Of a DNA stretch of 64,000 nt, positions 53,535 through 64,000 are shown piece by piece. How positions within the stretch are numbered: position 1 is the stretch's first letter; every line of letters begins with the position of its first letter. Location of the stretch: positions 682,001-746,000 of the forward strand of contig JBDOQK010000006.1 of NCBI GenBank assembly GCA_040437565.1, given 5' to 3'. Below the pieces are notes generated by a model that saw nothing but the letters and a program-made list of their open reading frames with translations, did no database searches and was not told the origin of the DNA. The DNA is from Albugo candida. Lineage: Eukaryota. The position numbers were made by a program, and so were the translations under genes.

Positions 53535-56111
53535 TTATAATACGTCATATTCCGTTGCAGTACAATTCAGATACGGATGAACGGGATCGCCATGGGTACT
53601 CCTTTTATGCTTAATCTCCATTGCGTTTGGTGCGTTTTCTCTACCAAATGCATTCATTTGCGCATTTTTATTCGCAGACTCTGTTGATACCTCGACAGGA
53701 GACACGTATCGATGGTTACCGCTGTTGCGCGAATTACGATCCTGTTTCTGAATTCGTAACATAGCTCTTCGCTTCACCACTGAGGAACTTGCTTCCTCTT
53801 GTATCTCTTGCTGTACATCATTTTGTAGCCTTGAGAGGAGATCAGCAAAGTCTGGTCTTTTTCTCGGATCATCTTCCAGACAATCCAAAATCAGCTTACG
53901 ACGTGCACCACGATAAGAAGTCTCCTTGTACTGAGAGCTTCCTCGGTGCTCTCCTGCACTTGAGTTCAAAGAGCCCACAGATTGACTAATAATTGCGTCC
54001 ACGTCGGTTATCAATCCCTCAACGGGAGGTAGAGGTGGAAGTGTTGGACGTGCATTACCATGCGCGATCCGAAGTAAAAGCTGCAAACCTGTCTCTTCAT
54101 AATCGTAATATGGCGTCTTTTTGGTCTCAAGTTCAGTCAGTATGATGCCGAAAGAATATACATCAGCAGGAGCCCCATAATTCTCGCTGCGAATGATTTC
54201 TGGAGCCAACCAAAATGGTGTGCCAACTAGTGTCGTCAATGCATCGATGCTCTTATTGTACCGTCTACTGAGCCCAAAATCGCCAACTTTGCAACCGAAT
54301 GTTGCCGAGCAAAACACATTGACACTTTTTAGATCTCGATGCACAATAAGTGGTTCACGAGTATGCAGATACAGCATTCCATGCACAATGTCCAAAGCTA
54401 TGTTGAGTAATGGGTCTGACCATGTGAACGATTCTTTCATGTTGGAATGCAGAACCGAATGCAGATCTCCATTCTCCATATACTCCATGACAATACATAG
54501 GTTGGAGCAATTATTCCAGCTCGCTCCAATGAATTGTACAATGTTAGGATGCCGTAGACTGGACATCAATTCAATTTCCTGGCGAAAATACCGAAGGGAG
54601 CTCTCGGTGATATGATCCCGTCGAATTCTCTTGCAAACTACAGTTGTTCCGTAGTAACGAGCTTTGATGACATCGCTCATCGCGCCACGACCGATCGCAT
54701 GTAGAAACTCCAAATCATCGAAAGGAATCTGAATCAAATGTAGCCGTCGTGAGGATAGGGGGTCATCAGATGCTGCCGAATCGAGTTCATGAGTTCTCGA
54801 TTCGTCGCTACCAATGCTATTGATCGATCCAAAGACTTGCTCCACGGCTCGTTTCTCTTCTTCTGCTGCCGCTCCGTGCATCAACGCTGCTTCTGCCTTA
54901 TCCAAAGAAGACTTGAGAGAAGCGTTTTCTTTTTCGACCTGAAGTGTTGCCAGAAAGGAACGTCGATTCGTTCCATCCGAAAAATAGCTAAGCAGCAACA
55001 ACAAAATCAAAGCCAAGAAAAATGTGAATGCTGCAAAAATGTGCACTGAGTGACCCGCAATCCAAATAGATGCAACGTATGTAATGATCGCAGCAGCTGT
55101 GACAACATTAACTTGAGTAAATTCGAGTCTGATGGAGATTGCGAATATGAAACTTGAAATCGAGACGAAACCAATTATGACTTGCAGTAAAATACCAAAA
55201 CATCGTTCCACAAAATAAGAAAATAATTGCCTTTGTAGACGAATGTGTGGAAACCCACGAGAAATCCATTTTTTGTCTCCTTGAAGCCTTTCTCCGTTTG
55301 TTTGCAACAGCGGTGAGGTCAAAACGTTTCCACTGTCACTGTCTACTGGCGATGAAATTCGGTTAGTCATGAAGCCGTCCTGCTTCCCATCCGATATTAA
55401 TCGCTTCGTCTCATTTGACTCCAAATCATGCAAATTGATCACCCACGTTTCATTATTATAATCCCAACTTTCCCCAAATTTTGGACTACAATGCAAATAC
55501 TTATCAAGTTTGACCAAAAATACATCTAGTGCTATGCGATTCGCACGAGCTAACCATAATTGGAATCCCAGATTTGATAAAACAATGATACAGCACACCC
55601 AAATACGCCAGTATTTCTGTACCAACGGAACGCTGCAGCGTGGAAGCGCGAAAGGTATCACAAATAACAAATAAACCCATTGCAGATAATCTGAAAAGTG
55701 CGTCCAGGATCCCACAAACTGCTCCATTCCGTAGATCCCAGATGAAGGAAGGATACTGAATAAGCCGTGCATCAACCCATGCAAAAGCATCCAAATCCAA
55801 ATATGCCACCGAGCACGAGCAAACCAATGTTCCGATGCAAAAGTTTGATAGGCTTTTTCCAAGTTTGAGTTTTGAAAAACTCTTGTATACGATTTGAAGA
55901 TTTGGTTGTCTGGAAGGATTAACAATTGTGTCATAGACTTTGGCTCCATTTCCGCAGTATGTTTAGAATCGTAATCATTTTGCCGCACGGTATACTTTGA
56001 AATATAGCCACTTATGCCACGACAGCAATTCAATAGGGAGCTCTCTGAACGATTGTATGTCGAGACCAGCAATGAAATAAAGTTGCCTGCTGCTCTCCGG
56101 GCTGTTTGCAT
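53535..56111 (-). CDS. Multi-pass membrane TKL protein kinase
   Basis: Several hydrophobic helices, a coiled coil, then a kinase domain (GRGAMSDV, VVCK, HRDLKS.N, DFG, GTPFWLAPE, DVYSFG). The start may be Met 55949. Confidence 0.9.
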   Translation of the reverse strand: MQTARRAAGNFISLLVSTYNRSESSLLNCCRGISGYISKYTVRQNDYDSKHTAEMEPKSMTQLLILPDNQIFKSYTRVFQNSNLEKAYQTFASEHWFARARWHIWIWMLLHGLMHGLFSILPSSGIYGMEQFVGSWTHFSDYLQWVYLLFVIPFALPRCSVPLVQKYWRIWVCCIIVLSNLGFQLWLARANRIALDVFLVKLDKYLHCSPKFGESWDYNNETWVINLHDLESNETKRLISDGKQDGFMTNRISSPVDSDSGNVLTSPLLQTNGERLQGDKKWISRGFPHIRLQRQLFSYFVERCFGILLQVIIGFVSISSFIFAISIRLEFTQVNVVTAAAIITYVASIWIAGHSVHIFAAFTFFLALILLLLLSYFSDGTNRRSFLATLQVEKENASLKSSLDKAEAALMHGAAAEEEKRAVEQVFGSINSIGSDESRTHELDSAASDDPLSSRRLHLIQIPFDDLEFLHAIGRGAMSDVIKARYYGTTVVCKRIRRDHITESSLRYFRQEIELMSSLRHPNIVQFIGASWNNCSNLCIVMEYMENGDLHSVLHSNMKESFTWSDPLLNIALDIVHGMLYLHTREPLIVHRDLKSVNVFCSATFGCKVGDFGLSRRYNKSIDALTTLVGTPFWLAPEIIRSENYGAPADVYSFGIILTELETKKTPYYDYEETGLQLLLRIAHGNARPTLPPLPPVEGLITDVDAIISQSVGSLNSSAGEHRGSSQYKETSYRGARRKLILDCLEDDPRKRPDFADLLSRLQNDVQQEIQEEASSSVVKRRAMLRIQKQDRNSRNSGNHRYVSPVEVSTESANKNAQMNAFGRENAPNAMEIKHKRSTHGDPVHPYLNCTATEYDVL

Positions 56112-56226
56112 GATAGAATTCGAACAAAGCGTATTTTAATTTCAAAGTTCGAATTTCTAAATTTTTATTCAGTTTTCGTGAATGAAATAATTACAGTCAA
56201 GTGCGTGAGAAAATAAAGACAAAAAT

Positions 56227-59104
56227 ATGGGAAAATCATGGATTGTGAAGGAAGGGTATTTACAGCTTCGTGTAGATGGGAGAAAACCACAGAGTGAAGG
56301 GAAGAGTGTCACAACAAGAACGAGAGAAGGTCACGGATCATTTTCCCTCATCGATCATTATTTCGTGTTACGAATCGATTGTAAAATACAAATATTTCAG
56401 ACTAATAGCAAAGAAAATTTGGCGAAAACAGTTTATGTACAAGCATTTTCGGGGTGGGATGGCGACGCATTGCTTAAACTAGACTCTTATGGTATTGAGG
56501 TAGTCTGTACGAGTCGGGCAAAGGAGCAGAAGACTGTATCGTTGTATGTCGCAGCCCACAACCGACGTGACTTGATGCAATGGTGTCGAGCTTTTGTGGG
56601 TATGTTAGGAGCTAGTTGTTGCTTTTACCGAGCTTCTAATTCTTTTATTTGTAGCGGTACTGGATCCACAAAGTGAACCAGCAACGGAACTAAACCGTGA
56701 ACGGCGCAAATATAAGAAAGAAGTAAAACGCAATCTTAAACTTGAGGAAGAAAAAGCTCAAAAGTGGAAAGAGGTTCGAAGGACAAAACTTGCTTATCTT
56801 CGGCAAGAAACCTAACTTACAATGTGCGCCTTTCGATTCTAGCTTAGAGAAAAAGTAGCACAAGAAGAACACTATAGACAAGTTGCAAGGGAGGAAGAAA
56901 TCAGTAACATGACACCACTCGAACGAATCAATGATTCTGGATCGCTGGACGATGACACGATACGTACGTTAGAGAAGAGGCAAGCGAGGCTACAGCGACG
57001 AAGGCAATCAGCTATTGCGAGACTCAACAAAAGTGCTTACCGTCGGCGTCTTGAAGGTGCAAGTGGTGGAAAGATAGAAAGCATGCAACCCTTGCAAAAC
57101 AAACCGATAGACTTGAAGCCTCGCGAACGCGTCGAACTACCACCACCAGGTCAGTTTTTCCAGAAGGTTTCTGACACCAGCAACAGAAATAAGGAAGAGA
57201 AAATATCAAGTTCAAACAGAACGGATAGAATTCACGCATCTCGTTTTCATGCAAGTCTTTCAAGCACAACTCAGGCGGATAGATCGAGGACTCATTCTAA
57301 TGAGCAAATTCCATTACCACCACCAAACTCACATAATGTATCGGACACAAAGCAACCATTCGAGGAATTCTTTTCTGAGGATCAAAGTTTGAATATCTCC
57401 GTCACGGGAAGTAATAGGCCACGGAGGGTATCATCTTTCATACCGCCACCACCGCCACTACCAACTGATGATGAAAGCCGATCCAATCGTATACTTTATG
57501 ATAATCACATTGATGAACTCGACGCTCCGGCAGGTGAAGATTGGAAGTCTATCCGCAGCGAAAATTCGTATTCAAACCGAGTTAATCGAGCACTCGAAGG
57601 CGAAGATGGTGTTAGTACTCAGCAGCGAGCTCAACGTCGGATACAAAGTGTAATCCCGACAGTTGCCTATAGCGAAAGACTAAAAACATCAGATCTCAAT
57701 TTCAGTGAGACCGCCGACAGTGACACTCATAGTGTGGTCAGAGAGAAGCCCACACGACGCAGAGGGCTCTTTGATGATAGCAGCGATGAATCAGGCGAGA
57801 ATTCTGATGATGGGCACGAAGCAGCATCTTTTTATGATGCCACTCACCCAAACGCAATAAAAGTCATACATTCTCCATCACCTCCGGATTCGAAGACGAG
57901 ATCTCGACATGATATGTCAAATAAGAGATCGAGCTCACCACTCTTCCTCGATTCCAAGGTCTCTGATACGATAGAAAAGATGGCTATTACGCGTGAATTG
58001 CCCTTAAGCGCATCATCAGCACATAAGGATTCTCTAGAAGTCTCCTACGTTTCTTCAAGGCTTATACAGAAGGCTGGTCAAAAACCTTTTGGTGTGTTCA
58101 AATATTCACTTCTAAGCGGTTCAGCGGAACATACAATTGAAAAAAGTTACAAAGATTTGAAATACATTCACTCTCGACTAATGGAAGAGTGTGGTACACG
58201 AAATTTGCCCAGATTTCCGTCAAAGCATTGGTATCGAGATAACTTGAAAGCGGAAAACATGCACAAGCGAGCGTTGGAGATATTGCAGTATTTGCAGTCT
58301 CTAGTGAGCATTCCCGGTATTATTGACAATGAAGTATTCCGCACCGAGTATCAGATTGCGTATGTCGAGCACAATAGAGACGATAAAGACCCAAGACAAT
58401 CAGAGAAGGATGCATCGATCCCAGGCGGAGTATCAGCTGCTAAACATCGCACTAACCGCTTAGAAACTCAATCACAGGACTCGGAAGTATCCAAAAGCAA
58501 AGCCATTAGCAAAAGTGGACGCCTATTTGCATCGTCGGACTCGTCCAATGGTGAATCGTCAGATGAAGCAGTCAAGTCAAAAACAAAAAAAGGTCATGAA
58601 GGGAGCAAACTAGTAATCAGAAATGCTTCAACGAAATCAGTTGGTTCAAGCTCGATGCTGCATTCAATTGACCACGATAAGCATACTGCAAAGCAATCTG
58701 ATATCGAAACTGAACCTTTGCATAAGAGGGATATGCAAGAAAGTAACAAGGTACCCAAAAAAGCATCGCTTCCAGCCTCAAATGGTATGTCAATTGATTT
58801 ACTAGAAGCTATCAGACGAGGGAAGAATCTCCAAAGGACCCAAAATTCAAACATTCCAAGCAGTAATAAAACTCAACTTACCACGACTTCGGTATCAAGC
58901 GTTATCCCAAGTAGCTATATGCATGGTTCAACTACGGATGCGTTGGATACTTCCAACCCATCAAAGCTCACCAACGTTCCGTCTTCTCAGCAAGTGCATT
59001 CGGTCAGCGATGCTATTTCTAATGCTTTGGCCATGCGGAAAGTATTCGTTGAATTCGAGGAACGTTCGGACGCTATAGATTCCGACGATGATTGGGACGA
59101 CTAG
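56227..59104 (+). CDS. PH-coiled-coil-PX protein with C-terminal WH2-central-acidic (WCA/VCA) module, 3 exons
   Basis: PH exon (VKEGYLQ...LMQWCRAF). Introns at about 56601-56653 and 56774-56842 restore the frame into ORF 56909. PX domain (EKSYKDLKYIHSRL...LPRFPSK...KRALEILQYLQSL), WH2 (LLEAIRRGKNLQRT) and C-terminus SVSDAISNALAMRK...DSDDDWDD. Confidence 0.8.
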
Positions 59105-60130
59105 CAAATCTTAGGTTTTGTTTCCGCCTCATAAACTCCGAAAATTTGACACTTGTGAAGATAGAGCTGCTATCTTCACTCTGATTTACACCTGAGCTCG
59201 TGTGATGGGTCGTTGAGCAAGAGGAAGCGTGTACCAGCTTGGACGCCTTATGTGCGTCTCTTTGCTCATACAGGATGTGTATCGGGCAGATACAAAGGAA
59301 GAGTACACGAATTCACCGGATATCGGTCCTCAATATGTTGTGAAGCAACTTTGATTGGATGAAGCCGGTACATACACAGCAAGAGATTTTGGACGTGATT
59401 CAATTCCATCAGAAATGTTTGCGATCGCAAAATTGCATTTGGTTCTTCTCTGTGCGATATTTGTGGCGTTTTGCGCGGCCTCGTACCTGCGCTCTCGGAA
59501 AAAGGCTCACCATTTTTGACGTTGGCAGTGCGTTTGCATCAATGATTCTGTGGTGCATATTGCGCTTACATGTGTCATTAGGATTCACTCACAGAGCTAC
59601 CAAAGTGAACGCTTAGAGGACGATCAAATTTGAATATATATTATGCATATTACCCGTTGCCTTTCTAACCGTGTTAGTCAAGTGTCATGTTGATCATATG
59701 ATAACAATCTGGCAATGTACTGTACACTGTCTATGTATAATCGACCTTTAATAAGAGTGCTATGTCGTATAATCTGCATACCCACGCTACCGCTATTCTT
59801 GAAATTCACGGTAAACCTTACCGCCACCGAATCTAAAAATAGTTATCGGGTTGCATGAGTTGCACATATCCATGAGTACACCTCATCATGTGTGTCCTTT
59901 GCAGCACTTGAAGCATTGCAAAAGGCACACAAATTGAGGTGTACTCATANNNNNNNNNNNNNNNNNNNNNNNNNNNNNNNNNNNNNNNNNNNNNNNNNNN
60001 NNNNNNNNNNNNNNNNNNNNNNNNNNNNNNNNNNNNNNNNNNNNNNNNNCATGCTAAGAGACTTGCAACATCAGGTCAAAATCTGTCTGTGTCGTTCCTT
60101 TTATTCTCATTTATAATTACTAACTATTGT

Positions 60131-61474
60131 ATGAAAATGCAGCGAACAAGAAAGACAACGACGACACCAACGAAAAATGCAACAACAGCAACAACTATGA
60201 AGCGCGTCGGTGGCGGATTTGTACTGCGCACACCTCCAACGGTGACAACGCCAGCACGAACTCAGCAGCGCCCGTCGACAACACCAGCACGAACTCAGCA
60301 GCGCCCGTCCACAACGACAGCACGAACTCAGCAGCGCCCGTCGACAACACCAGCACGAACTCAGCAGCGCCCGTCGACAACGCCAGCACGAACTCAGCAG
60401 CGCCCGTCGACAACGACAGCACGAACTCAGCAGCGCCCGTCCACAACGACAGCACGAACTCAGCAGCGCCCGTCGACAACGTCATCAACATTGCGAGCTA
60501 ACGTACCAAGAAATGCGACGACGGCCAATGTGGGGTGGACCGATTCTACTAATGACCCGGTAATGCGTGCGGGTACGGGCGCGCGCGTGGCAGCGGCCTC
60601 CGGTGCAAGAGTGTCTGCGGTGCCGACCCCGACAAGAATTCCAGCAATGCCGGCAGATCCAACATCGGAAAACCAACCGCGACTGCGACAATTGGTGCAA
60701 CTCAAAAAAGAGAATGTTCAGTTGTCGCGCGCCCTGGAGACGAAGTCAACTCAACTCCGAAGCGCTACTGAGAAGATTGGTTCGCTCAAAACGGTCGTCC
60801 AAGAACTCAACCAGCAGCTGGAAGTAAGTCGTCAACGAAACCAGATTTGTCAACGCAAGCTGGATTATGCGTACAAGACACATAAAGATGATGGATACAA
60901 GCTGAAGGAGCTCACGGATGGACACACGATACTCAAGTCCGAGTTATCAAGATCAAAGGCGATGCTGGACGAGTTCAAAGTCTTCATGGAGCAGCAGCAA
61001 AGACAACTGATGGAGCTTAAACATGAAGGCGATTTGAAGACTTCCGAATTGACGGAAACGGAAACGGCTCTCATGCAGAAGATGGAGCTTCAGCATCAAC
61101 ACGATCAAGAAAAGATCAAGCAATTGGAGCAAGTGGGTATTAAATCCAACGCGGAAATTTTGAAGTCCCGGTCAGTACTCGATGAATTATTGGCTTTTAT
61201 GGAGGATCATCTTAGCTATCTGAAAGTGACCAAAGAAGCCAAAGAAAAGAAGACATCATGTGCATTACAGAATCAAGCAGCTGAAAACAGAAGTACCGAT
61301 CAAGAAGCGGCAGTCTATGAACGTCGAGTGCATCGCGGATATGACCTCATTACGTCATTTAAGATGCATGTAGACATGCTGCAGTGGAAGCTTGAGAATT
61401 CGGAGAACAAGATTGAAGAACAAAGAAAACTACTGCACAGGATATCAACTGAACACGACAAGATGCATAACTAG
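60131..61474 (+). CDS. Basic tandem-repeat plus long coiled-coil protein of unknown function
   Basis: ATG at 60131, seven TT(P/T)ARTQQRPS repeats, then about 270 aa of heptad-rich sequence. Confidence 0.75.
   Translation: MKMQRTRKTTTTPTKNATTATTMKRVGGGFVLRTPPTVTTPARTQQRPSTTPARTQQRPSTTTARTQQRPSTTPARTQQRPSTTPARTQQRPSTTTARTQQRPSTTTARTQQRPSTTSSTLRANVPRNATTANVGWTDSTNDPVMRAGTGARVAAASGARVSAVPTPTRIPAMPADPTSENQPRLRQLVQLKKENVQLSRALETKSTQLRSATEKIGSLKTVVQELNQQLEVSRQRNQICQRKLDYAYKTHKDDGYKLKELTDGHTILKSELSRSKAMLDEFKVFMEQQQRQLMELKHEGDLKTSELTETETALMQKMELQHQHDQEKIKQLEQVGIKSNAEILKSRSVLDELLAFMEDHLSYLKVTKEAKEKKTSCALQNQAAENRSTDQEAAVYERRVHRGYDLITSFKMHVDMLQWKLENSENKIEEQRKLLHRISTEHDKMHN
60245..60480 (+). repeat. 33-bp coding minisatellite, 7 copies
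   Basis: The unit ACAAC(G/A)(C/A)CAGCACGAACTCAGCAGCGCCCGTC(G/C) is repeated head-to-tail with no spacers. Confidence 0.95.
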
Positions 61475-62890: not shown

Positions 62891-64000
62891 TGTTCTGAAG
62901 ACTTATTGCTCACTTAGAAATTTATAACTGCCTAAATATAGGTCCTTAGTTCGCTACCCTGTGCTACCTCTAAGCCTATCATTCTAGGTCCCTCTATAAT
63001 GTTTCTAATGACGTCAGACCATGACGTCATCCTGTGACGTCATGGCCTGTCTAGCTTACAGTCAGCTCAATCTTGTTGCCCGACTCGGCGGCATGACATC
63101 TCCCCGGACTTGACTTCGCGTTGGCGGTCTCGAAAGTCTGTACTAGTCGCTGCCAATGCGAAACGTGGCGGATAGCTTTCTCCCGTTGCCAAGTACTATC
63201 ACACTNNNNNNNNNNNNNNNNNNNNNNNNNNNNNNNNNNNNNNNNNNNNNNNNNNNNNNNNNNNNNNNNNNNNNNNNNNNNNNNNNNNNNNNNNNNNNNN
63301 NNNNNCGGGAGAAGATGCATATATCGTCCAGATACACGACAACGAAGGTGCCTAGCTTGTCGAACAACGTTCGCATAAGACGTGACCAAACCCCAGGCAT
63401 TCCTGATAACCCCATTGGTGCTACGCACCATTGATACGTTTTCTTGTGGGTTCTTAAAGCCGTATAGGTTCGACTTGATGGCAAAACTACCATTTGATGG
63501 TACCCTATAGCAAGATCGAGAAGCTTAAAATACTTGCATCCAACCATGCGGTCGAATAGTTCTTGGATTAACGGCAAAGGAATTTTTGCCACGACGGACA
63601 TGCTATTCACATAACGGTAGTCAATTACCCAGCGAATGGGAATCTTCGAATTTCTGCTCCGAGCCATTCGGCGCGTTTTGGGAACTTTCCGGTTGTGGGA
63701 TCTTTCTATGGGATTCCAAAAATATTCGAGACCCATGGCGAGTTCGATACTTCTATCCATCCTTTGCGTATATTCTCTTCAACGAATTGCTGCAGTGCGT
63801 CTTGCTCAACCTTCGAAAGACGGAAGGGAGCACGGGCGCGCGGCACCGCATCAGGCTTTATTTGCAGTTCGAAGTTCACTGATCTCTTTGGAGGCATTTC
63901 ATTGGGAAGTTGTTCTGGAAATACGTCCTTGTACTCGTCCAGAACTGTTTTCAACTCCTGCAATATTTCTGATGGCTCTACGTTGGTAACCTTCAGTTGA
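62891..64000 (-). mobile_element. Ty3/Gypsy (chromovirus-like) LTR retrotransposon, degenerate pol plus probable 3' LTR
   Basis: FPEQLP..MPP.R..F, PFRLS, SPWVS, RWVIDYR.VN, LDLAIGYHQ, PMGL and VYLDDI reverse-transcriptase motifs, with a stop and frameshift near 63660-63710. After the gap come a chromodomain-like tail (STWQREKAIRHVSHW), purine-rich CCGGGGAGA and TGTCA at 63098 (LTR start). The LTR end near 62891 is tentative. Confidence 0.9.

Follow-up and report, generated by a model that had tools for sequence, protein, structure and literature searches.

Can one protein chain bring membrane-binding modules together with an actin-nucleating end? This question is raised by a gene on the plus strand of contig JBDOQK010000006.1 of the oomycete Albugo candida (NCBI GenBank assembly GCA_040437565.1), which occupies positions 56227-59104 of the 64,000-nucleotide (nt) stretch analysed here (contig positions 682,001 to 746,000, forward strand; hereafter the window, whose numbering is used throughout). 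An initial annotation, made from the letters of the DNA, had read the gene as a candidate Arp2/3 nucleation-promoting factor (NPF) in which a PH domain, polyproline tracts, a PX domain and motifs of the LF-acidic type (Leu-Phe beside acidic residues) accompany a C-terminal module of WH2, connector (C) and acidic (A) elements (WCA, or VCA). As set out below, the product is probably a lineage-specific class I Arp2/3 NPF that would be recruited to a trafficking membrane. Judged at the level of sequence, it falls outside WASP, WAVE, WASH and WHAMM/JMY and within the definition of a VCA protein. The main published survey does not include it, and it likely represents a novel class of actin nucleation factors.

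The transcript and its WH2-C-A tail

The gene model was placed on the plus strand, and the translation of the spliced frame was checked for stops; the frame of 2754 nt encodes 917 amino acids (aa) and contains a single stop codon, at its end. Splicing was assessed by comparison with four public sequencing runs (X1, X4, X5 and X6) over positions 56100-59300. The parts of the gene are as follows.

56177-56226 (at least from 56177), plus strand: 5' untranslated region (UTR), beginning at the start of the spliced X1 contig
56227-56599, plus strand: exon 1, encoding the PH-fold domain, aa 1-124
56600-56654, plus strand: intron 1, 55 nt, GT..AG, joint present in X1 and X4 contigs
56655-56773, plus strand: exon 2, encoding the start of the charged helical region
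56774-56842, plus strand: intron 2, 69 nt, GT..AG, in frame with stop codons, joint present in X1 and X4 contigs
56843-59101, plus strand: exon 3, followed by the stop codon at 59102-59104

Both exon joints are present in contigs from two of the four runs (X1 and X4, of one study), and the X1 contig, which is 3322 nt long, starts at 56177, crosses both joints and reaches past the stop codon to the end of the compared stretch. The RNA nature of the runs is a presumed label, and reliance was placed on the spliced contigs; those of X1 and X4 were taken as spliced RNA because introns with GT..AG borders are absent from them. The X5 and X6 runs covered the locus in fragments only, and one X5 contig (56816-56974) represents DNA or unspliced RNA, since it is colinear with the genome across the border of intron 2 and exon 3. 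These data indicate that the gene is expressed as a three-exon spliced transcript, and because one spliced contig joins all three exons, the PH exon is part of that transcript and not a separate one. Furthermore, both junctions lie within the stretch over which the 914-aa orthologue of A. laibachii is colinear with the product. The splicing of the PH exon to the remainder that had been proposed in the initial annotation is therefore borne out, and a separate PH transcript is contradicted by the single contig that runs through both introns. The proposed order of PH domain, helical region, polyproline, PX and WH2-C-A in one chain is likewise upheld by one spliced transcript, and all of the motifs that had been named from the sequence were recovered in the spliced product, including FIPPPPPLP, RGLFDDSSDE, RLFASSDS, DLLEAIRRGKNLQRT, DAISNALAMRK and DSDDDWDD.

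That a neighbouring PH gene and a PX-WCA gene have merely been read as one is hardly credible in light of this transcript. Such an artefact would agree with the A. candida database model P0003 (801 aa), which lacks the first 115 aa and begins too late, and with several orthologue models that have plainly been merged with adjacent genes (the Lagenidium model with a Myb protein, P0028 and P0030 with a COMM-domain (COMMD) protein, and the Bremia model, of 2471 aa); however, it is contradicted by the one spliced contig from 56177 through both introns and past the stop codon, and by the presence of the PH part in the same chain in 16 of the 17 orthologue models aligned (P0021 is without its first strand). 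The best database match of the exon 3 product is an Albugo candida protein of 99% identity. As a further feature of the transcribed contig, the 5' UTR contains an upstream open reading frame (ORF) of two codons (ATG AAA TAA, 56181-56189), 46 nt ahead of the start codon.

The tail encoded at the end of exon 3 was compared in an alignment of 18 family sequences from Albugo, Pythium, Globisporangium, Phytophthora, Peronospora, Peronosclerospora, Plasmopara, Hyaloperonospora, Aphanomyces and Saprolegnia, and consists of the following elements.

58790-58846, plus strand: WH2 (V) motif, DLLEAIRRGKNLQRT, with D, L, L, A, I, G and L invariant in 18/18
58847-58996, plus strand: WH2-to-C linker, disordered, 50 aa
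58997-59053, plus strand: amphipathic C (connector) helix, DAISNALAMRK, with S720, I725, A728, A730 and R732 invariant
59054-59104, plus strand: acidic (A) tail DSDDDWDD and stop codon, with D746, D748, W751 and D752 invariant in 18/18 and the Trp third from the end

The WH2, the C helix and the acidic Trp end align column for column in the 18 sequences, so that the conservation of WH2, C helix and terminal Trp among orthologues, which the initial annotation had left to be checked, holds in 18 of the 18 aligned. The WH2 core follows the pattern D-L-L-x-A-I-x-x-G-x-x-L, which is invariant in these 18 sequences, and conservation is lowest in the linker that follows it (top-residue frequency 0.31, gap fraction 0.39). 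In the AlphaFold model of exon 3, a short helix lies over the WH2 at 652-658, and the C helix is predicted at 721-735 with a predicted local distance difference test (pLDDT) score of about 70. The sequence thus carries the features of a class I NPF, namely a WH2 near the C-terminus, a proline-rich region upstream of the VCA module, and, in keeping with the common definition of the C-helix/acidic-Trp motif, a C helix that conserves an Arg and precedes a Trp-containing acidic stretch.

A profile built from the last 100-130 residues of eight members was searched against the PDB, and it matched the WH2 repeats of N-WASP (E 5.3e-11 and 3.8e-7), WAVE1 (3.8e-4) and WAVE2 (1.1e-3), as well as Spire, MIM, WASP and WIP. 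Outside the family, an exhaustive HMMER scan of 1.84 billion representatives recovered, among the matches listed, a WH2 protein of Thecamonas trahens that aligns over the whole WH2-C-A span (E 2.9e-7). Within the family, the linker that separates the WH2 from the C helix contains a further WH2-like motif, SLLAALQQAPPLKK, in P0031 (Aphanomyces astaci, Saprolegniales), so that members differ in how many WH2 units they have.

Conservation and distribution of the family

Across the 18 aligned sequences, the helical block, the LF motifs, the PX domain and the WH2, C and A elements reach top-residue frequencies of 0.69-0.84, compared with 0.31-0.54 in the linkers. The same pattern is seen between A. 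candida and A. laibachii, which are 95% identical in C, 94% in A and 83% in LF motif 2, compared with 32-46% in disordered stretches (33-46% in the flanks of LF motif 2). Such conserved islands amid diverged disordered stretches indicate that the short motifs are under selection within Albugo itself.

Family members range from about 750 to 1100 aa. When a profile of four sequences was used in a word-seeded search, 32 proteins were recovered; 30 of them carry organism names, and all 30 are oomycetes. The exhaustive scan returned 46 representatives at E<=1e-30, and of the 150 best matches listed, those below about E 1e-17 align chiefly over the PX part. Ten representatives were examined, and the five named strong matches among them are oomycetes as well (Bremia, Peronosclerospora, two Aphanomyces and Achlya). 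Four others of the ten are environmental or run-assembly sequences, and the three of these that were read, the divergent members P0043, P0057 and P0058, have kept an LF motif, the PX domain and the WCA. As far as sequence searches define it, the family is oomycete-wide, being present in every oomycete lineage sampled and having no named full-length member elsewhere; the lineage-specific family of the initial annotation is supported by the named members of the profile searches, which are all oomycetes.

Is there a place for such a protein among the Arp2/3 activators already recorded in these organisms? According to the accessible part of Kollmar 2012, stramenopiles have only one WASH or one WAVE, and neither WASP nor SCAR is recorded there for Phytophthora, nor for P. 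ramorum in the accessible table of Fritz-Laylin 2017. There is therefore room for another activator. The accessible text of PMC9187236 reports that the P. infestans genome encodes ARP2 and ARP3.

The family protein differs in sequence from the Phytophthora WASH proteins of Kollmar 2012 (PhrWASH and PhsWASH). The term 'PX domain' is absent from the main text of Kollmar 2012 in its accessible form, and a family-specific 7-mer gave 0 matches in the supplementary alignment of that survey (2.4 million characters), in which a motif split by a line break or a gap would escape. No description of a protein with PX and WH2 in oomycetes was found in the literature outside subscription journals and bioRxiv supplements. 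The architecture matched no NPF family described in that literature, in keeping with the initial annotation, and the protein is distinct from the WASH of Kollmar 2012, where no PX domain is mentioned. Taken together, the comparative evidence supports a lineage-specific protein with a predicted WCA end and a new domain plan.

PH fold, PX domain and LF-acidic motifs

Upstream of the tail, exons 2 and 3 encode the following features, in addition to the PH fold of exon 1.

56655-57157 (intron 2 inside), plus strand: charged helical region, NMTPLERI ... LPPPGQF, the best-conserved block of the family
57437-57463, plus strand: poly-proline tract FIPPPPPLP, inside a long disordered Ser-rich region with pLDDT <50
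57752-57802, plus strand: LF-acidic motif 1, RGLFDDSSDESGEN (RGLFDDSSDE), with R, G, L, F, D and S invariant in the 18 sequences
58028-58357, plus strand: PX domain by Pfam, profile and fold, with the canonical Arg for binding phosphatidylinositol 3-phosphate (PtdIns3P, or PI(3)P) absent
58514-58567, plus strand: LF-acidic motif 2, RLFASSDSSNGESSDE (RLFASSDS), with L561 nearly invariant (>=90%) and F562 invariant in the 18 sequences

The N-terminal PH domain that had been proposed stands by its predicted fold and not by its Pfam score. Pfam PH (PF00169) scored Albugo exon 1 at 14 bits (E 0.075), below the gathering cutoff of 25.1, and matched 0 of 19 family members at E<=0.1. An AlphaFold model of exon 1 (pLDDT 78.4; predicted template modelling score, pTM, 0.69) has seven strands and a C-terminal helix. 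When this model was used as a query, 14 of 14 Foldseek matches at E<=0.001 were PH domains, as were 50 of the 50 entries listed by VIA-align (Z 10.0-12.9; root-mean-square deviation, rmsd, 1.8-4.4). Residues 1-275 of the orthologue gave leads in the ESM Atlas that are all PH-type, with every score <0.9. The N-terminus is, according to these models, a classical PH fold that is weak by sequence and clear by structure. An N-myristoylation site was also considered and rejected: 16 of 19 sequences begin Met-Gly, but the residues that follow misfit the consensus for this modification, and the Saprolegniales sequences start otherwise.

The PH fold bears on whether the family is merely a divergent member of an existing subfamily. 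The family could then be an additional paralogue of WASH or WAVE, or it could be the missing stramenopile WASP, whose WH1 would have been swapped for, or have diverged to, a PH-type fold. In favour of this, the PH superfold includes WH1/EVH1, and the tail is most like N-WASP and WAVE in the profile search. An order of N-terminal domain, basic or helical region, poly-Pro and VCA is also the general WASP-family plan, according to the accessible part of Kollmar 2012. However, the structural neighbours listed are all classical PH domains, and a WH1/EVH1 identity of the N-terminal fold is made less likely, none having been among the Foldseek matches or the best 50 VIA-align entries listed. Furthermore, Pfam WH1, CRIB, WAHD and WHAMM/JMY were unmatched in 19 of 19 members at E<=0.1, a threshold at which PX, WH2 and two chance families were the only families matched; the PX domain between poly-Pro and WCA is found in none of those subfamilies; and the Phytophthora WASH of Kollmar 2012 is a different protein. 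Membership of an existing subfamily is accordingly rather improbable.

The PX assignment is unambiguous by Pfam and by fold. Pfam PX (PF00787) scored 38.9 bits in Albugo against a cutoff of 21.6 and was matched by 19 of the 19 aligned members. A family profile searched against the PDB had the PX of SGK3/CISK as its nearest match (E 1.3e-9), and the PX structures of PI3K-C2 alpha, SNX24 and SNX16 were also found. The AlphaFold model of exon 3 contains one well-folded block, at residues 398-505 (pLDDT 84-94), for which Foldseek returned the SGK3 PX as the nearest structure (E 1.8e-7; template modelling (TM) score 0.81; rmsd 2.9).

Between the PH fold and the PX domain, the charged helical block has a mean top-residue frequency of 0.80 in the 18 sequences, and its identity between the two Albugo species is 85%. 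Helices are predicted in it at residues 2-21, 25-29 and 37-75 of the exon 3 model, and no Pfam match to the block was obtained (Albugo exons at E<=1; 19 members at E<=0.1). A homodimer prediction with two copies of aa 122-272 of the A. laibachii orthologue scored 0.00, which gives no verdict either way. Apart from these start helices, the PX domain, the short WH2 helix and the C helix, the remainder of exon 3 is predicted to be disordered. Runs of at least four Pro residues occur in 20 of 20 family sequences, that of Albugo being PPPPP at exon 3 residue 201. All members except both Albugo species have kept an internal block (alignment columns ~510-610), which has a pair of helices resembling WH2 or C elements (NLAAILGG... 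and AFAASLAAIRRNR...) and after which comes a conserved SQLSAEGK, immediately upstream of LF motif 1. By its sequence, this block may be a second, degenerate actin- or Arp2/3-binding unit in the members that have it.

LF motif 1 has the form GLF[DE][DES]S in 20 of 20 family sequences. In 15 of the 20, comprising all Peronosporales and Pythiales and one other, a second hydrophobic-Phe dipeptide ([LIVMF]F) follows 9-13 residues past motif 1; it is lacking in the Albugo and Saprolegniales sequences. The LFa motif of FAM21 is given as L-F-[D/E]3-10-L-F, that is, two hydrophobic dipeptides around an acidic stretch, in the accessible parts of Jia 2012 and the preprint of Guo et al. The two-LF form of the 15 sequences, none of which is from Albugo, is close to this pattern.

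Proposed function and comparison with known systems

The features described above suggest how the protein could work as an NPF at a membrane. An actin monomer would dock on the WH2, and binding and activation of the Arp2/3 complex would fall to the C helix together with the acidic Trp tail. The role of the poly-proline tracts would be either to supply profilin-actin or to engage SH3 partners. Localisation to a membrane, most plausibly at an endosomal, vacuolar or plasma-membrane trafficking site, would depend on the PH, PX and LF-acidic elements. It is from these elements that we infer the activation of Arp2/3, the membrane acted on and all of the partners.

A number of observations weigh against an NPF of this kind. 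In the tail, Pfam WH2 was found at E<=0.1 in 17 of 19 family members and was undetected in both Albugo species (A. candida scanned at E<=1), and the second half of the Albugo WH2 is degenerate, reading LQRT or LQKM and not the LKKV type usual for this motif. The WH2-to-C linker of Albugo exceeds those of other members; the unusually long spacer of the initial annotation is thus real, although it measures about 50 aa and not about 55. The alignment of the tail profile on the C/A stretch of WAVE1 is weak (independent E-value, i-Evalue, 62) and insignificant alone, and Albugo has lost the internal NLAAIL.../AFAASLAAIRRNR... block. Among the membrane elements, the beta1-beta2 region of the PH fold, where PH domains have their canonical basic motif, is variable, and a conserved basic pair or signature was not found across the family. 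The Arg position of the PX Arg-Tyr pair is occupied by Ser, Thr or Ala in 18 of 18 sequences. Lastly, both LF sites of Albugo consist of a single LF with an acidic/Ser stretch and do not have the FAM21-type LFa form.

The substitution in the PX domain affects how lipid binding should be envisaged. Canonical PtdIns3P binding requires the Arg-Tyr pair at beta3/alpha1, the Lys of PxxPxK and an Arg in alpha2, and in a survey of human PX domains every PX missing one of these four residues failed to bind PtdIns3P (accessible part of Chandra 2019). In the oomycete family, the other three positions are kept (Tyr/Phe 18/18, Lys/Arg 18/18 and alpha2 Arg 18/18), and pairwise alignments with the PX domains of CISK and SNX24 place a Ser opposite their Arg. 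Because the PX is without the canonical Arg, it is predicted not to read PtdIns3P in the canonical manner; the domain may use another lipid site or bind protein. The proposed coupling to phosphoinositide membranes is therefore weakened, with the PX Arg replaced in 18 of 18 and the PH fold without a conserved basic signature, and coupling to retromer has lost ground too, since the Albugo LF sites are single-LF and not the full L-F-acidic-L-F of FAM21. Membrane targeting remains likely.

Could the protein instead be a sorting-nexin-like trafficking scaffold, whose WH2 binds actin monomers, whose C and A elements bind Arp2/3 weakly or not at all, and which tethers or delivers actin? The PX domain is the strongest domain signal, the LF-acidic motifs resemble trafficking motifs, WH2 also occurs in the non-nucleators MIM and WIP, which are both matched by the tail profile, and the WH2 of Albugo is degenerate; nevertheless, a scaffold is unlikely, because C and A are the best-conserved short elements. 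Their Arg and Trp never vary in the 18 sequences, and the two Albugo species are 94-95% identical in these elements, which is hard to explain without an Arp2/3-type partner. A further alternative is a membrane-bound factor that sequesters or inhibits Arp2/3 in the manner of Arpin or Gadkin, with the acidic Trp tail holding the complex inactive. Acidic Trp tails alone also occur in Arp2/3 inhibitors, and the long WH2-C linker of Albugo could uncouple actin delivery from Arp2/3 binding. However, the WH2, C helix and A tail are conserved together here in canonical order, and we know of no inhibitor of the Arpin or Gadkin type that has a WH2 and a C helix, which makes inhibition very unlikely.

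For the membrane-recruited NPF, a more specific role can be put forward only tentatively, as one we rather doubt. The protein might be an oomycete single-chain endosomal nucleator and a new WASP-family subfamily, combining a WASH-type VCA, a FAM21-type LF-acidic tail that would recognise retromer or another LFa reader, and a sorting-nexin-type PX. It might act beside the WASH complex; alternatively, at endocytic or secretory sites in the hypha and haustorium, it might stand in for the missing WASP. If this were true, a single-chain nucleator would combine what animals spread over several proteins, and a new subfamily would be confined to a group of organisms that are major pathogens of plants and animals.

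A second conserved WCA protein alters the inventory of oomycete Arp2/3 activators in comparison with the published one WASH or WAVE and no WASP, and puts forward a specific protein through which oomycete pathogens might control actin at membranes, a process of which little is understood. The plan of PH, PX, LF-acidic and WCA elements would be a natural experiment in the coupling of nucleation factors to membranes. Moreover, the family, being absent from plants and animals, offers a lineage-specific point of access for the study, and possibly the control, of oomycete growth.

The neighbourhood of the gene in the window was also inspected. The divergent upstream neighbour (53538-56135, minus strand) is one open frame of 866 aa with a Pfam Pkinase match (E 3.9e-52) and hydrophobic segments in its N-terminal half; with these segments and the kinase domain, it looks like a membrane-anchored kinase. 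Downstream, a frame at 59912-61474 on the plus strand contains a run of N, approximately eight tandem 10-residue units of the ARTQQRPSTT type and a long charged helical part, and its sole Pfam match is a weak one to the coiled-coil-type family Rod_CreS, far below cutoff. At 63143-64000 on the minus strand, open frames resembling a retrotransposon reverse transcriptase are broken by a stretch of N, and no match was obtained when a short piece of them was scanned with Pfam. COMMD proteins act in endosomal recycling, and a COMM-domain link at the Albugo locus was considered in view of the merged models P0028 and P0030. It was rejected, as the upstream neighbour is a kinase and no COMM domain was recognised by eye among downstream ORFs of at least 90 aa; the COMMD in those models may be only a merged neighbour.

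Like N-WASP and WAVE/SCAR, the family has a proline-rich region and then, in succession, a WH2, a C helix in which an Arg is conserved, and an acidic tail whose Trp is of the penultimate type. It differs in having no WH1, CRIB or WAVE-homology domain, in having a PH fold and a PX before the WCA, and in having been found in oomycetes only. WHAMM and JMY are similar in joining a membrane-binding module, a helical or coiled-coil region, poly-Pro and a WCA. The initial annotation knew of no WCA protein with PH plus PX, and that combination was not found described; however, WHAMM, a metazoan protein (accessible part of Kollmar 2012), already has a PX-like PI(3)P-binding domain (accessible text of PMC10330494) and is a functional precedent for a WCA protein with a PX-like membrane module. 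The PX-like part of WHAMM is N-terminal, whereas the PX of the family is a bona fide Pfam PX without the canonical Arg, and no Pfam WHAMM/JMY match was obtained in the 19 members.

With WASH and FAM21, the family shares endosomal actin as its likely field of action. As in the tail of FAM21 (WASHC2), its LF-acidic motifs lie in a disordered region, and the L-F-acidic-L-F arrangement is found in the Phytophthora and Pythium members. FAM21, in contrast, has 21 repeats and is a subunit separate from WASH, whereas the oomycete family combines two motifs and the WCA in a single chain and, unlike WASH, has no Pfam WAHD match. Finally, the family has the PX fold of SGK3/CISK, SNX16, SNX24 and PI3K-C2 alpha and keeps the PxxPxK Lys and the alpha2 Arg, but departs from SGK3/CISK-type PX domains in having Ser, Thr or Ala, in 18 of 18 sequences, for the Arg of the Arg-Tyr pair.

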